Notes: a model not told the origin generated them from the sequence alone. Positions 21,622 through 27,162 are shown, counted from the first letter of the stretch. The stretch is DNA of 64,000 nucleotides from an uncultured Planctomycetales bacterium (GCA_964464475.1 CAYXGG010000001.1:23174-87173), one strand, 5' to 3'. Numbers and translations: made by a program.

Positions 21622-23196
21622 TTGGTCGAATTACAATATTTTGAAGTTGGTCTAGTCCGATGTATCCGCGGATGTATTGTCATCGTTACCGGTTTTAAGA
21701 ACTGCCTGAATGGTCAGTTGGTCAAATTCGGATACGGAACTATCGGCATGATCGTTGGGTTTACCACTGAAGAAGCTTCTGTATTGATTATTAAAGAAAG
21801 CGAACGCATCAAAACCGGCGACCAGGCTATGGCCACGCTGGAACCCTTTCTCACTCCCGTTGGAGATCATTTTATTGGCCGCATCGTCAACGCGTTAGGG
21901 GAACCCATGGATAGCCTGGGGCCCATTGAAGCGAGCACGATGGCCCCGATTTTTATCGAAGCCCCATCGATTCTTAAACGCGCACAACTTCATAAGACAT
22001 TAGAGACAGGTTGTAAAGTATTGGACGGGATGATCCCCGTTGGATTGGGGCAGCGCGAATTAATACTCGGGGACAAAATGACGGGTAAGACCACGATTGT
22101 CACCGATGCGATATTAAACCAAAAGAATACCGGTCTCATTTGCATTTATGTGGCGATTGGAAAGGCGCGTTCTTCCTTAGCGCGCGTCGTCCAACTATTC
22201 CAGGATAATGATTGTTTTAAATATTCACTTATTGTTTCCGCGACAGCATCTTCATTGCCTGGCCAACAATATTTAGCCCCTTATGTGGCGTGCTCATTGG
22301 CAGAGTATTTTATGAATCAAGGCAAGGACGTATTGATCGGTTTTGATGACTTAATGAAGCATGCCTGGTGTTATCGCGAAATTTCACTGCTTTTGGGGCG
22401 CGCCCCGGGACGAGATTCGTATCCCGGCGACATTTTTTATCTACATTCCAAGTTTATTGAGCGCGCTGCTTTTATGAGTCCTGAAAACGGAGGAGGATCC
22501 ATCACTTTTTTGCCGATTGTGGAAATTTTGGAAGGCGATTTGACGGGATTTGTTCCCTCAAACCTTGTTTCCATGACGGATGGCCAAATTTATCTTAATG
22601 CTCAGCTTTTCGGTGAAGGTCAGCGTCCGGCTGTTGATTTGGGTTTGTCGGTTTCACGCGTCGGCAGTAAAGTCCAGTGGCCTGCGGTAAAGAAATTATG
22701 CGCCCCGTTGCGCTTGGAGTTTTTGCAATTTAGAGAATTGTTGCGGATTTCACGCCTGAAAACGACTGGACAAAGCGAAGAACAGCTCCAGAAATTGAAA
22801 AGTGGCGCCATCCTGACCGAACTATTAAAACAAGATAAAGACGCGCCGGTCCCTTCGGAGGCGCAGGTCATGATTTTTTATGCTTTTAACAAAAAGTTAT
22901 TGATGGAATTATCCATTCCTGAAGTCAATGAGTTTCAGGCTCACATTTTGGAATTCGCTGTGCAGCAAGATCCGCAATTGCTGAAAACGTTACGCGAGAA
23001 GAAAAGTTTGGATGAACAGATAGAAAAAGGGTTGATGGCGGTATTGAACAGTTATCTGGCTCAATTAAAAGGTAAGCGTTCGGGAGCTGAGTCCTCCGGG
23101 GCCAATAAGGATGAAGTCTCTCAGGACGTTTTGGACCAAGCGGTTTCCAAGGCCGCGGCTAAGGACAAGGAAGCCAAATCTGCCGGAAAATCGTAA
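21622..23196 (+). CDS. atpA: F-type ATPase alpha subunit (524 aa, TTG start).
   Basis: ELILGDKMTGKTTIVTDAILNQK matches ELIIGDRQTGKT in the F1-alpha P-loop region. Homology continues through CIYVAIGKA, ATASS, QYLAPY, SLLLGRAPGRD(S)YPGD(I)FYLHS(KF)IERAA and ITFLPIVE..GD...FVP(S)N(LV)S(M)TDGQI(Y)L...LF..G.RPAV. Bracketed residues show where this protein differs from my recalled E. coli F1-alpha. Confidence 0.9.
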   Translation: MVELQYFEVGLVRCIRGCIVIVTGFKNCLNGQLVKFGYGTIGMIVGFTTEEASVLIIKESERIKTGDQAMATLEPFLTPVGDHFIGRIVNALGEPMDSLGPIEASTMAPIFIEAPSILKRAQLHKTLETGCKVLDGMIPVGLGQRELILGDKMTGKTTIVTDAILNQKNTGLICIYVAIGKARSSLARVVQLFQDNDCFKYSLIVSATASSLPGQQYLAPYVACSLAEYFMNQGKDVLIGFDDLMKHAWCYREISLLLGRAPGRDSYPGDIFYLHSKFIERAAFMSPENGGGSITFLPIVEILEGDLTGFVPSNLVSMTDGQIYLNAQLFGEGQRPAVDLGLSVSRVGSKVQWPAVKKLCAPLRLEFLQFRELLRISRLKTTGQSEEQLQKLKSGAILTELLKQDKDAPVPSEAQVMIFYAFNKKLLMELSIPEVNEFQAHILEFAVQQDPQLLKTLREKKSLDEQIEKGLMAVLNSYLAQLKGKRSGAESSGANKDEVSQDVLDQAVSKAAAKDKEAKSAGKS

Positions 23197-23214
23197 TCGA
23201 ATTAAATAGTCGGC

Positions 23215-23520
23215 ATGTATAAAGGTATTTTTAAATTAGTGGTCATGAGTTCAAAATCCCTCATTTATGAAAATGAGGTTCATAGTGTTTTCTTGTCGGG
23301 GGATCGGGGAGAGTATGAACTTTTAGCGTACCACTATCCATTGGTGGGAGTTTTGACGCGGGGCAACATTATTATCGACTGGAAAGAAAGCATTCCCATT
23401 AAAGGCGGCATTGTTCGCTTTATGGCCAACGAATGTTCCATTATGGTCGAAGAGGAAGACCAGAAGACATTAAATGTTTCAACGCTGGATACCGTGAATA
23501 AAGAAGTTCGGAAAGAATAA
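23215..23520 (+). CDS. atpC: F-type ATPase epsilon subunit-like protein (101 aa).
   Basis: The size, its position after atpA, and an N-terminal beta-sandwich-like pattern (LVVMSSKSLIYENEVHSVFLSGDRGEYELLAYHYPLVGVLTRGNIII) resemble F1 epsilon (the ...P.G..GILP.H.P....L..G.. pattern). Confidence 0.5.
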   Translation: MYKGIFKLVVMSSKSLIYENEVHSVFLSGDRGEYELLAYHYPLVGVLTRGNIIIDWKESIPIKGGIVRFMANECSIMVEEEDQKTLNVSTLDTVNKEVRKE

Positions 23521-23522
23521 TC

Positions 23523-23747
23523 ATGCTCTTAGCTGAAACATTAATTATTATCGCGATCATGTTTATCGCGGTCATGGGGCCATCGGTCGTTATCGCAGTT
23601 TTGGGGTATGCGGTGATCAAGGCGCTGGCGCGCAATCCTTCCGCGGCGTCCAAGATATTTATGGGCATGGTGGTGATGTTAATTTTTGTAGAAGCTATTT
23701 CTATCGTCGCGATTCTGATTATTTTTCAATTGTTTGGGAGAGGATAA
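23523..23747 (+). CDS. atpE: F-type ATPase c subunit (proteolipid), divergent, 74 aa.
   Basis: It is a two-helix hairpin. The loop ARNPSAASK is similar to the ARQPE loop of c subunits. A conserved carboxylate sits in helix 2 (FVEAIS). The helix-1 glycine motif is degraded (AVMGPSVVIAVLG). Confidence 0.6.
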   Translation: MLLAETLIIIAIMFIAVMGPSVVIAVLGYAVIKALARNPSAASKIFMGMVVMLIFVEAISIVAILIIFQLFGRG

Positions 23748-24803: not shown

Positions 24804-24818
24804 AGGCGGACAATCTAC

Positions 24819-25688
24819 ATGGGAAAAGCCAGCCGTGTCAAATATGAACTGGTAGAAGTCAGTGACCTGGTCAATTTAATCCAGGTTTTAAAGGACGTCG
24901 CTGACAATAAGTTTTTTACGCTTATCAATCAGAAGGATCGTTTTGCGCGTTTTGGCGAATCTTTTGTGGATTTCTTTAGGCTGATTAGTTTTACTGCGGT
25001 CGAACACCCGTTGCTGAAAAATGACGTCCCAACGGTCGGGATTCTGGTATTGACTTGGGAAGGAAGTTTTCTGGGTGATTTGAACAATAAAGTCATTCGC
25101 GCGGCCCAAACAGAAAAAGGGAAGTACCCCAACTCCGTATTTATTATTGCCGGACGTCGCGGGGTGATGAAGTTTGGGAAATCCCCGGATGTCGTCAAAA
25201 CATTTGAGAATATCGAAGCGACGGGTATTTACAAGCTGTCTTTGCAGATTAAGGATTATCTGGTTGAGCAAATCATGGCCAAGCGTTTAGGGAAGGTCAT
25301 CGCAATTTATCCCTGGCCGAAGAATTTGAATTTAATTAAGTCGCGTGTCGTTAAACTGCTTCCGGCAGAAGATCTGCTTGATAAACAGGCGGATTTTGCA
25401 CAGTTGATGGAACGGATCATTCTTGAGTCTGAAGCCACGAGTATTGTTGGCTACTTGGCGAACTTGTGGGTGTCCACCAAGATTTATGAAATGCTGTTTG
25501 ATACGTCAATTGCCGCTGCGGCCGCACAATCACAGCAGTTGGAAAACAGTTTGAAGAAAATGAACAAGGAAAAAGCTGCGGTCAAAGTAAAATACCGAAA
25601 AGCGAAAAAAGGCGATATCGACAAAAGTTTGCGGGAAGTTTTTATTGCTAAACTGATGCTAGAGCGTAAAGCTGCCGCCAAGACCTAA
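24819..25688 (+). CDS. atpG: F-type ATPase gamma subunit-like protein, divergent (289 aa).
   Basis: It sits between the b/delta and beta genes. [24 protein letters not shown] resembles the gamma motif (hhVv.sDrGLcGgfN..h.k.). The C-terminal helix [42 protein letters not shown] resembles the gamma C-terminus. The canonical N-terminal IRRRIKSVKNTQKITKAM helix is not recognisable. Confidence 0.5.
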
Positions 25689-25689
25689 T

Positions 25690-27162
25690 ATGACAAAAGA
25701 TCAACAGCCGGCATCACCGTCTGACGGTGAGGCTACATCCGAAAAAATAATCACCACGTCAAATTCGACGCGTCGTCGAGGAGAGGGGCGTATTCAGTCC
25801 GTGCAAGGTCCTGTCGTTGATGTTTTGTTTGAACGTTTGGAAGATATCCCCGGCGTTTATGATGTGGTGGAAGTGATGACGTTTGATAAGAAGCGGGTTG
25901 TTATGCAATGCGCCGAGCACTTAAGTAGCAGTCTAGTGCGTTGTGTCGCCTTACAGGATACACTGAATGTGCAGTTAAATTCCGCTTGTTACAACACCTT
26001 TCAACCTATTGCGGTTCCGATTGGTGACGAGTGTTTTGGTCGCATCATGGACACGACGGGGCGCCCGCTCGATAATGGAGGCCCCATTAATGCGCCCAAC
26101 AAAGTTCCTATCCGTAAAGTCACCAAACAAGTTAATTTTGATTTGAAAAAGAAAAAGGGCGAACGGCCGGAAGTTCTCGAAACCGGGATGAAGTATTTTG
26201 ATTTGCTTTTTCCCTTGGTCAAAGGGAGTAAAACGGGAATTCTCGGAGGTGCTGGTTGCGGCAAAACCGTCGTCATTTTGGAGCTTATTAATAATATCGT
26301 TAAGGCGCACGGTGGTGCGTGCGTCTTCGCGGGTATCGGTGAGCGTATTCGTGAAGGCAACGAATTGTATTACGAATTGGAATTTAACAAGCTTTTGAAT
26401 AAAGTTATGCTAGCTTTTGGGCAAATGGATCAGCCACCCGGAACCCGTGCGGAAGTCGTGAATACCGGCATCACACTTGCCGAATATCTGCAGTCTAAAA
26501 ATAAAGATGTGCTGTTGTTTATGGATAATCTGTACCGATTTGTTCAGGGAGGTCAGGAAATTTCAACGCTATTGGGAAGAATCCCTGCGGAAACCGGTTA
26601 TCAGCCAACGCTCGCCTCAGAAGTTAGCGCGGTTCAGGAAAGAATCCGCTCTATTGAAGGGGGAGGTTCAGTGACGGCTATGCAAGCCGTTTATGTTCCG
26701 GCAGATGATATGACTGATCCTGCGGTCGTTGCTATTTTTAGTTATTTGGACGGTTGTATTGTTCTGTCTCGTGAGTTAGTTCAGCGTGGTATGTACCCGG
26801 CGATAGATCCCTTACAAAGCACCTGTGCCAACCTGGATCCGGTGGTCGTCGGTCGTCGTCACTATCAGGTCGCGACCAATGTCATTCAACATTTTAATAA
26901 GCATAATGCGCTTAAGCGCATCGTCGCGGTCATTGGGGTGGAAGAATTGAATAAAGAAGACCAAGCCATTTATAAACGCGCTGAAAAATTGCTTAATTTT
27001 ATGACGCAGCCTTTTCACGTGACCGAAGTCTTTACCGGTAAAAAGGGAGCTTTTGTTTCCATCCAGGAGAATGTCGAGGGATGCGCGCGTATCATTAACG
27101 GAGATTTTGATCATTTAGGGTCGGATGAGTTTTACATGATCGGGAAAGTTCCCGAAGTTTAA
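25690..27162 (+). CDS. atpD: F-type ATPase beta subunit (490 aa, about 30-aa N-terminal extension).
   Basis: [42 protein letters not shown] matches the F1-beta P-loop GGAGVGKTV..ELI.NIA..H.G.SVFAGVGERTREGND.Y. The motifs [20 protein letters not shown] and the DELSEED-like EELNKED are present. The stop at 27160-27162 is 2 nt before the next start. Confidence 0.9.

Follow-up and report, generated by a model that had tools for sequence, protein, structure and literature searches.

A compact set of F-type ATPase genes occupies positions 21622-27162 on the plus strand of a 64,000-nucleotide stretch of DNA from a genome titled as an uncultured Planctomycetales bacterium (GCA_964464475.1, CAYXGG010000001.1:23174-87173). 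This whole stretch is referred to as the window, and coordinates given without a locus name are positions in it. ORF calling delimits seven tightly packed open reading frames (ORFs), all on the plus strand, encoding alpha, epsilon, c, c′, a fusion of b with delta, gamma, and beta, in that order. An earlier note on this DNA had assigned these subunits and remarked that their order matches neither the canonical atpIBEFHAGDC nor the atpDCQRBEFAG of N-ATPases. Both statements are borne out, the assignments by Pfam, NCBIfam, profile and structure comparison. In the best-supported reading, the genes encode a complex that has a c-ring, lacks subunit a, and is not the ATP synthase of the cell.

The gene set and its close relatives

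Pfam and NCBIfam models identify six of the seven ORFs; c′ matches no model. F1 alpha (21622-23196, plus strand) matches PF00006 (1.4e-68) and PF00306 and scores 509.4 bits on TIGR00962, where the cut-off is 484.45. It carries a charged C-terminal tail of about 40 residues. F1 beta, the catalytic subunit (25690-27162, plus), has a low-complexity N-terminal extension of about 30 residues and reaches 534.7 bits on TIGR01039 against a cut-off of 462.85. The nearest solved structures of the F1 part are ordinary bacterial and mitochondrial F1 subunits. The other subunits reach their Pfam domain cut-offs, as is the case for gamma, the N-terminal domain of epsilon, c, and the OSCP domain of delta, while falling below the NCBIfam equivalog cut-offs (gamma 53.7 bits on TIGR01146 versus 194, epsilon 38.7 versus 67, c 23.1 versus 44, delta 27.2 versus 57.5). 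Epsilon (23215-23520, plus; 101 residues) consists of the N-terminal beta-sandwich only (PF02823, 5e-10, residues 6-79). The divergent gamma subunit, the central shaft (24819-25688, plus), matches PF00231 over residues 13-274 with 69.2 bits, the cut-off being 39.9. It had been described as lacking the conserved N-terminal helix motif, a claim that does not hold, since alignments to hidden Markov models (HMMs) begin at residue 6-13 and the helix is therefore present, merely divergent.

The same set recurs in many genomes. A scan restricted to one genome per species returned 80 loci with an alpha subunit 51-82% identical to that of the window, and such a recurrence in 80 species-level genomes is far beyond chance. 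ORF calling and BLAST on 84 sequences (loci L001-L083 plus the window) located alpha in 83, epsilon in 79, c in 83, the b-delta fusion in 79, and gamma in 73. Beta follows gamma wherever the contig reaches, and its raw count of 83 includes weak alpha cross-matches on short contigs. The gene of an anchor protein, described below, is present in 81 of these sequences, GspE in 66, GspF in 65, and GspG in 63. Genes that are missing fall at contig ends, and GspE follows beta in 66 loci. Gene order is constant, with the ATPase genes always between the anchor protein and the GspE/F/G-type genes, and beyond the assigned families no other recurring ORF family was found in the loci.

Tandem c-type proteolipids

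Two tandem, mutually related c-type proteins follow epsilon, as had been proposed. Subunit c (23523-23747, plus) is a 74-residue hairpin that matches PF00137 with 30.2 bits, above the gathering cut-off of 24. Its divergent paralog c′ (23755-23994, plus; 79 residues) has no HMM match and was recognized by BLASTP and hhalign. BLASTP against the c ORFs of relatives gives E-values down to 4e-8. When a profile of 47 c′ sequences is compared with one of 77 c sequences by hhalign, the two align from end to end (98.5% probability, E 2.3e-15), Glu of helix 2 on Glu.

No protein of the locus is more conserved than subunit c, which has 76-93% identity to the window in loci that also carry c′ (L001-L056, L060, and L066) and 54-75% in a sister clade with a single c. 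It has a nearly invariant GPS motif, a nearly invariant RNP loop, and Glu57 in helix 2, at the alignment position of the carboxylate that binds the ion in solved c subunits. The Glu is kept in 74 of 77 aligned sequences, or 74 of 75 if bona fide c sequences are counted. At the GxGxGxG motif of helix 1, where a solved c subunit has G-G-G-G, the window protein has G-S-V-A, which confirms the degraded glycine zipper that had been noted. As far as a manual alignment can be read, helix 2 has E-A rather than E-S/T, and Ile occupies the helix-1 position of the sodium-ligand Gln, so c would carry no sodium signature. In one lineage (L077, c-type ORFs at 11327-11539 and 11551-11805) the Glu of the main c is replaced by Cys, and the second c-like protein is without a carboxylate.

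The c′ gene is present in 54 loci, those with an alpha subunit 63-82% identical to that of the window, and absent from 23 of 79 loci. In the sister clade, where alpha is 52-59% identical to that of the window, 23 of 25 loci lack it, and in these c and b-delta lie 8-33 nucleotides apart or their called ORFs overlap. It is a clade-specific duplication. The earlier note held that both proteolipids retain the helix-2 carboxylate. In c′ as a family the Glu is mostly conserved, being found in 41 of 47 copies and replaced by Met or Gln in four. Helix 1 of c′ has an invariant Cys after a near-invariant Pro (46/47), where c reads G-P-S and canonical c reads G-P-G. Two sister-clade loci, one of them L077, have a very divergent second c-like ORF of their own without the carboxylate. 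In L080 (5974-6198), the independent second c-like ORF has no Glu and an Arg inside helix 2 (NMIIRLIIVG).

Stalk, trimmed parts and catalytic residues

The peripheral stalk is represented by a single 256-residue protein (24033-24803, plus) in which b is fused to the C-terminal domain of delta/OSCP. OSCP (42 bits) and ATP-synt_B (23.5 bits) match the same ORF, and relatives of the protein match both PF00430 and PF00213. The OSCP match covers residues 180-241 and profile positions 105-167 of 172, that is, the C-terminal domain of delta only; the N-terminal domain is absent. An AlphaFold2 (AF2) model, with a mean predicted local distance difference test (pLDDT) score of 85, consists of one 140-residue helix and an alpha/beta domain, and Foldseek places the latter on the C-terminal domain of Escherichia coli delta with a root-mean-square deviation of 1.0 Å over 66 residues. 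The best structural match is the mycobacterial b-delta protein (PDB 7NJK, 7JG5, and 9VKP, chain d; Foldseek E 1.7e-6 to 1e-4), in keeping with the fusion that had been predicted. However, the mycobacterial protein is about 445 residues long and contains a complete delta. Overall, the model also resembles V-type subunit E and FliH.

Two further parts of the F1 sector are trimmed. Alignments of alpha begin at profile or chain position 22-30, leaving some 20-25 canonical N-terminal residues missing, and the ORF admits no upstream extension. An alpha subunit that starts there is without the tail that binds the delta N-terminal domain. Epsilon is 96-108 residues long throughout its family and is a beta-sandwich alone, the C-terminal helical hairpin being absent in every case. 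In bacterial enzymes this hairpin is the part that inhibits ATP hydrolysis.

The catalytic sites, in contrast, are complete. The P-loop of beta (GGAGCGKT) and its residues Glu218, Asp279, and Arg283 are invariant among 68 homologs, as are the P-loop of alpha (GDKMTGKT) and its Arg346 finger among 80 sequences. The F1 part is thus predicted from its sequence to be catalytically intact and built to work. Between four pairs of loci, non-synonymous differences per site range from 0.03 to 0.37 over the genes (c 0.03-0.10, alpha and beta 0.06-0.19, c′ 0.04-0.34), whereas synonymous sites are saturated at 0.67-1.06. This saturation leaves only the contrast between the proportions of non-synonymous and synonymous differences (pN versus pS) usable, not dN/dS, and the contrast points to purifying selection on all genes. 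A decaying remnant of an atp operon that has lost subunit a would account for a missing a and for several truncated subunits. Such decay is hardly credible, as every gene is intact in at least 80 genomes, the catalytic residues are invariant, and non-synonymous divergence stays far below the saturated synonymous divergence.

Searches for subunit a

The two half-channels for ions and the stator arginine of the enzyme belong to subunit a. The earlier observation that no such gene lies in the 64 kb is upheld, in that PF00119 (ATP-synt_A) has no match among the scanned ORFs of at least 120 residues across the window; the models for c, OSCP, and ATP-synt_B do find matches in the gene set. No atpI or other small membrane gene occurs in the set. 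Beyond the window, a search of 85 related loci, with four different gene orders among them, found no subunit a within a distance of about 10 kb. In the 80 genome loci, examined with flanks of up to 10 kb, every recurrent ORF is assigned to a known family of the locus. Across all of these loci there are just two unassigned multi-transmembrane (multi-TM) ORFs; one encodes a UbiA prenyltransferase and the other is without any match.

A possible substitute for subunit a within the gene set, c′, was considered and rejected. The protein is nothing more than an ordinary c-type hairpin, and in 23 of the 25 sister-clade loci c′ and a are both lacking.

The giant protein and its anchor

Upstream of the ATPase genes, most of the first 20 kb of the window is taken up by a single ORF (6-20141, plus) for a giant secreted repeat protein of more than 6711 residues that runs off the 5′ end. 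It contains about 490 tandem 13-residue units of the form G-V-N-W-x-D-[LI]-x-x-[LM]-[ST]-x-x, with 493 NW motifs and an NW-to-NW spacing of exactly 13 residues in 465 of 492 cases. A non-repeat domain of about 480 residues, ending in VVVKSWFESGE, forms the C-terminus. The repeats belong to no Pfam family, and at the DNA level they are too diverged for Tandem Repeats Finder (TRF). In related assemblies the contig mostly breaks inside the giant gene. In a complete, shorter homolog (L016:4564-8538), a Sec signal peptide and a Laminin_G_3 domain stand at the N-terminal end.

The next gene (20160-21506, plus) encodes a 448-residue protein, ‘up448’, which is termed here the anchor protein and has no Pfam or NCBIfam family. 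In its AF2 model (pLDDT 88.6), an N-terminal signal or TM helix precedes two repeats of a seven-strand beta-sandwich and a three-helix bundle, followed by a 65-residue helix, a conserved C-terminal TM helix, and a short basic tail. The model has no fold match in the PDB. A profile search of 1.84 billion cluster representatives returned 963 relatives (E ≤ 1e-3), a number too large for a rare system, and the named members of the family are almost all Omnitrophota (88 matches in a word-indexed search).

The two proteins are linked by position and by fusion. In 71 of 83 loci, the anchor gene comes immediately after the sequence for the C-terminal domain of the giant protein. Several anchor relatives are proteins of 1200-2000 residues in which a signal peptide, adhesin-like domains, and a coiled coil are followed by the anchor module and its TM helix. 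The coiled-coil domain of these fused proteins ends in K(T/S)W(F/L)E(S/P)G and is homologous to the C-terminal domain of the giant ORF in the window. Fusion of the giant-protein domain to the anchor in distant relatives indicates that the giant and anchor proteins work together.

Proteins of the Ac45/Voa1 type place a single TM helix inside the lumen of the V-ATPase c-ring. A comparable position for the anchor helix was considered and is weakened by the GGDEF domain on the cytoplasmic side of the anchor in some members of the family (L087 and P0400), which would clash with the gamma/epsilon foot.

Secretion and pilus genes downstream

The co-directional block that begins with the giant ORF and the anchor continues past the ATPase genes with GspE, GspF, a Peptidase_MA_2 protein, GspG, minor pseudopilins, GspK, a PilM-PilN fusion, a GspM-like protein, and a TPR protein. 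Intergenic gaps in the block are 1-38 nucleotides, except for 115 ahead of alpha, and the stop codon of beta lies two nucleotides from the start of GspE. With this spacing the genes are presumably co-transcribed. A promoter and terminator scan between 19.9 and 39.8 kb gave counts not above those in shuffled sequence and so bears neither way on operon structure.

The GspE/PilB-type secretion ATPase (27165-29369, plus) combines the central PF00437 domain (3.8e-131) with an N-terminal MshEN domain (PF05157) and a C-terminal PilZ domain (PF07238) that binds cyclic di-GMP (c-di-GMP). It falls below both equivalog cut-offs, scoring 582 versus 630 for GspE and 565 versus 676 for PilB. It is followed by a GspF/PilC-type inner-membrane platform protein (29383-30591, plus; PF00482, 1.4e-59) and by the Peptidase_MA_2 protein (30530-31414, plus; PF13485, 2.3e-10), whose start codon is uncertain and which lies between GspF and GspG in 38 loci. 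The major pseudopilin is of the GspG type (31428-31853, plus; PF08334, 1e-31, with an N_methyl match). Minor pseudopilins with N_methyl matches are encoded at 31717-32277 and 32290-32919 (both plus), the second being GspJ-like with a weak T2SSJ match, and a GspK-like protein at 32916-33959 (plus; T2SSK_1st, 2.3e-9). The minor pseudopilin and GspK genes are conserved in relatives. The remaining genes encode a GspL-like PilM-PilN fusion (33917-35476, plus; PF11104 and PF05137), a GspM-like protein with a weak T2SSM match (35473-36192, plus), and the TPR protein that ends the co-directional block (36098-37021, plus; TPR families). From 33917 to 37021, gene order is identical in L001-L003.

The block contains the core set of a type II secretion system (T2SS) or type IVa pilus (T4aP), namely GspE, GspF, major and minor pseudopilins, and an L/M-type platform. 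Neither a secretin nor a prepilin peptidase is among the scanned ORFs of the window. Links to c-di-GMP occur at two points, through MshEN and PilZ on GspE and, in some relatives, through a cytoplasmic GGDEF domain after the anchor TM helix (L087:7371-9203 and P0400).

Distant relatives and host group

More distant loci (alpha 46-55%, beta 53-55%, and c 54-58% identical to the window) have other gene orders, in contrast to the close loci, which share the order of the window. L085 has GspA/B-like genes and a secretin, then, further on, a fused giant/anchor protein, the series epsilon, c, b-delta, alpha, a second alpha, gamma, and beta, and finally GspE, GspF, and GspG. L086, from a metagenome-assembled genome (MAG) titled Deltaproteobacteria, begins with the fused protein, alpha, an AAA_22 gene, a GspC-like gene, and a secretin, and later has a second alpha, epsilon, c, and b-delta. 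In L087, the giant gene and an anchor-GGDEF gene are followed by a toxin-antitoxin pair, b-delta, c, alpha, gamma, and beta, a GIY-YIG gene, and GspE, GspF, and GspG, while L088 has two large proteins followed by epsilon, c, b-delta, and alpha. Thus, a secretin with GspA/B/C-like genes lies adjacent in L085 and L086. The c subunits of the distant loci all retain GPS, RNP, and the Glu, and no a-like or multi-TM ORF was found in L085-L088. The atp genes have thus been reshuffled several times and yet stay with one another and with the secretion and anchor genes, and in none of these arrangements is a included. Two alpha-type genes are present in L085 (15707-17170 and 17172-18635), which has one beta, and in L086 (5312-6739 and 12141-13457). 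This hints at a head that may contain two kinds of non-catalytic subunit.

Nearly all of the 80 loci come from records titled Omnitrophota, Omnitrophica, or generically ‘uncultured’, and the named homologs of beta are almost all from Candidatus Omnitrophota. Many public MAGs that bear the locus (L006, L008-L011, L013, and others) are titled Planctomycetales/Planctomycetia, Elusimicrobia, or Deltaproteobacteria; the record-level taxonomy of such MAGs is probably generic or wrong. A V-type ATP synthase has been assigned to Aceula and other Omnitrophota from Ace Lake (Williams, 2021), and two Aceula genomes carry the locus described here (L012 and L018). A 2026 preprint on 176 complete Omnitrophota genomes gives alpha and beta in 125 and a canonical gamma in only 30-35; it lists no number for subunit a.

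One alternative is a housekeeping ATP synthase with a rearranged operon whose secretion neighbors are incidental. Alpha and beta do pass the canonical equivalog cut-offs, and public annotation names the products F0F1 ATP synthase subunits. Nevertheless, 80 species share the same flanks, and distant relatives keep the association even where their genes are rearranged. No a was found in the window or the sampled neighborhoods, gamma, epsilon, c, and delta score below equivalog cut-offs, and the literature gives these organisms V-type or separate ‘respiratory’ F-type enzymes. A housekeeping role is therefore highly improbable.

Comparison with known systems

A locus of this kind has been published. 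In Omnitrophota, a ‘symbiotic’ F-type ATPase/T4aP locus was described that encodes a non-respiratory F-type homolog; in 57 of 66 contigs it lies no more than 10 kb from T4aP genes, and giant ORFs occur in the same genomes (Seymour, 2023, Nat Microbiol, PMC10066038). The window adds one more example of such a locus. Its named homologs are almost all from Omnitrophota, its F-type alpha and beta lie within 10 kb of type IV pilus (T4P)/T2SS genes, and all 80 alpha homologs at 51-82% identity lie in the same type of locus. The published loci were defined by alpha phylogeny and co-location and labeled ‘type 2/3’ together with those of Mycoplasma (Seymour, 2023). Within the searchable portions of that paper's main text and supplements, no mention was found of the a-less state, the retained c and b-delta, or the duplication of c, nor, in the searchable texts, of the link between anchor and giant protein or the joint loss of the delta N-domain and the alpha tail. 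In its KEGG Orthology (KO) tables, at least one genome has K02111 and K02112 without K02108-K02110 and at least one has the full set, which is anecdotal only. The earlier note on the window gave the composition correctly and had missed the prior publication, along with the clade-specificity of c′ and the giant, anchor, and T2SS-like context.

The Type 2 (Mycoplasma mobile gliding) and Type 3 (MIB-MIP) systems may work in a similar way, through an extra F1-type ATPase that spends ATP on a surface machine instead of making it. Their clusters comprise seven genes, including one for a 2-TM protein with a signal peptide, extracytoplasmic domains, and C-terminal TM helices, and they are accompanied by giant surface proteins. 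Horizontal acquisition of such an ‘F1-like X0’ ATPase, as the ‘type 2/3’ label implies, would explain this similar logic, in which an extra F1-type ATPase is tied to surface machinery and to a neighbor with a signal peptide and C-terminal TM helix. The scores point elsewhere. Alpha and beta match the canonical atpA and atpD models best and pass them (509 and 535 bits), whereas the Mycoplasma-type models NF045863/NF045858 and NF045936/NF045934 are missed (404 versus 600, 419 versus 850, 288 versus 520, and 394 versus 570). Among the PDB matches listed, the beta subunit of the M. mobile G1-ATPase is the weakest, with 341 bits versus 396-453 for canonical F1 beta. In addition, the Mycoplasma clusters lack c, b, and delta and have a 12-TM protein and a small cytoplasmic protein, whereas this locus has c, c′, and b-delta and no 12-TM protein. 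The HMM and PDB scores do not support grouping with Mycoplasma type 2/3, and descent from that type is very unlikely; the likeness is one of logic, not of membership.

With canonical F1Fo (atpIBEFHAGDC), the gene set shares alpha, beta, gamma, the N-terminal domain of epsilon, c, b, and the C-terminal domain of delta. It differs in having no a, no atpI, another gene order, the delta C-domain fused to b, and an extra c. The N-tail of alpha and the C-terminal domain of epsilon are absent, and the set is embedded in a secretion locus. The N-ATPase, reportedly described by Dibrova et al. in 2010, is said to be a second, accessory F-type enzyme encoded by atpDCQRBEFAG, with a, AtpQ, AtpR, a sodium-binding c, and no separate delta. 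The best NCBIfam match of b-delta is the long b of this enzyme (alt_F1F0_F0_B, 2.4e-13). However, the alt_F1F0 models stay far below cut-off (alpha 454 versus 750.5, beta 455.5 versus 752, b 50.5 versus 224.7), and the N-ATPase has an a subunit, while a, AtpQ, and AtpR are lacking here and the gene order is another.

A precedent for a relative of rotary ATPases that serves secretion is offered by FliI-FliH-FliJ. In this system, an F1-related ATPase works on the type III export of flagella and injectisomes with a gamma-like shaft and a b/delta-like stalk; FliI is a homo-hexamer, and there is no c-ring. Alpha and beta of the window score only 170-196 bits on FliI/YscN models, which have cut-offs of at least 380.

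Other genes of the window

Convergent with the secretion block is a gene for an 898-residue homolog of STT3-type oligosaccharyltransferases (37018-39714, minus strand; PF02516, 4e-17). It was not found in the parts of related loci that were retrieved and is probably not part of the system. A tRNA-Lys(CTT) gene (39800-39875, plus) is the sole Rfam match in the window. Pentose-phosphate genes (a split transketolase and a transaldolase, 40010-42951) stand beside a set of beta-oxidation-type genes (52061-60952, plus) that encode an AMP-binding enzyme, a thiolase, an enoyl-CoA hydratase/3-hydroxyacyl-CoA dehydrogenase fusion, and an acyl-CoA dehydrogenase. The genes at 43396-52010 (plus) comprise an RND efflux set (OEP, HlyD with heavy-metal-binding domains, and an AcrB-type pump), followed by metal-binding YHS/TRASH proteins and an ArsP-type permease, and are probably a metal-resistance cluster. 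All substantial genes of the window but one are on the plus strand. Counted in 2 kb bins, the GC skew stays positive throughout (0.08-0.31), with its peak in the giant gene.

A candidate ATP-driven motor in a surface apparatus

The earlier note had left two branches, a subunit encoded elsewhere or a complex that does something other than chemiosmotic ATP synthesis. This dichotomy stands as framed, and the evidence favors its second branch, because a is absent from 85 neighborhoods with four gene orders, synteny with secretion genes is strict, the inhibitory domain of epsilon is lost, and a V-type ATP synthase has been published for related genomes. The explanation judged best, with somewhat better than even chances, is that of an accessory ATP-hydrolyzing motor, composed of F1 and a c-ring, that serves a secretion or adhesin apparatus rather than acting as the ATP synthase of the cell. 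An alpha3beta3 head whose catalytic sites are intact would turn a gamma-epsilon shaft on a ring of c hairpins, together with c′ where present. The stalk would consist of b fused to the C-terminal domain of delta, and the whole complex would be anchored in the membrane without subunit a. Since it is a that furnishes the half-channels and stator arginine, rotation would not be coupled to ion flow, and the complex would act as an ATP-hydrolyzing motor rather than as a synthase or ion pump. F1/c-ring/stalk complexes do assemble and hydrolyze ATP without a, examples being assembly intermediates of E. coli and the complexes of human rho0 cells, which lack mitochondrial DNA. The ATPase would form one module of an apparatus encoded on one strand, beside the giant protein, its inner-membrane anchor, and the c-di-GMP-sensing GspE with GspF, pseudopilins, and GspK/L/M-like proteins. 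Most likely, it would provide mechanical or conformational work to this secretion or adhesin machine.

Several observations weigh against such a motor. The Glu of c persists in 74 of 75 bona fide sequences, and does so even where relatives share no more than 54-58% identity. Its retention and the conservation of c as a whole would be expected of a ring that faces a stator arginine, which makes an a subunit encoded elsewhere a real possibility. The change of Glu to Gln or Met in some c′ resembles rings with fewer ion sites in ATP-driven pumps. Nothing points to a membrane holder of the b-delta stalk or to a partner of the ring.

The same observations feed the main competing explanation, a complete ion-translocating F1Fo, pump or synthase, whose a gene lies elsewhere in the genome and which energizes the membrane for the secretion system. 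T2SS export needs the proton-motive force as well as ATP. Besides the nearly invariant Glu and RNP loop of c, the most conserved subunit, and the occasional c′ substitutions reminiscent of hetero-oligomeric pump rings, the retained b stalk fits this explanation. Against it, a is absent from all 85 neighborhoods despite at least three reshufflings in which the atp genes never parted from c and b, and it would be unusual for a to be encoded by itself at a distance in all lineages. L077 has Cys for the Glu of c and a second c-like copy without the carboxylate. The enzyme is also a remodeled one, having lost the delta N-domain, the alpha N-tail, and the epsilon C-terminus. An ion-translocating complex of this kind is accordingly considered unlikely, though a serious contender.

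The accessory hydrolytic motor may also be taken a step further, to a true rotary or torque motor freed of ion coupling, whose work crosses the inner membrane to the giant fiber or to the pseudopilus. Force would then pass through the anchor protein and the T2SS-like platform. This more ambitious proposal is speculative, with perhaps one chance in several. If true, the apparatus would represent a new class of surface organelle that runs on ATP and serves attachment, movement, or predation, and a rotary ATPase would have been repurposed for surface mechanics independently of Mycoplasma gliding.

With a missing and the secretion context fixed, it can be argued that this enzyme should not be counted as a chemiosmotic ATP synthase, and automatic ‘F0F1 ATP synthase’ labels may mislead metabolic reconstructions of Omnitrophota. 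The locus poses two questions, what forms the counterpart to a turning ring and why the carboxylate of the ring is retained, which bear on how rotary ATPases are recruited to other tasks. The apparatus includes a giant adhesin-like protein and a c-di-GMP-controlled secretion ATPase. As Omnitrophota are suspected to be epibiotic predators or parasites, the module is a candidate for their machinery of attack or attachment.

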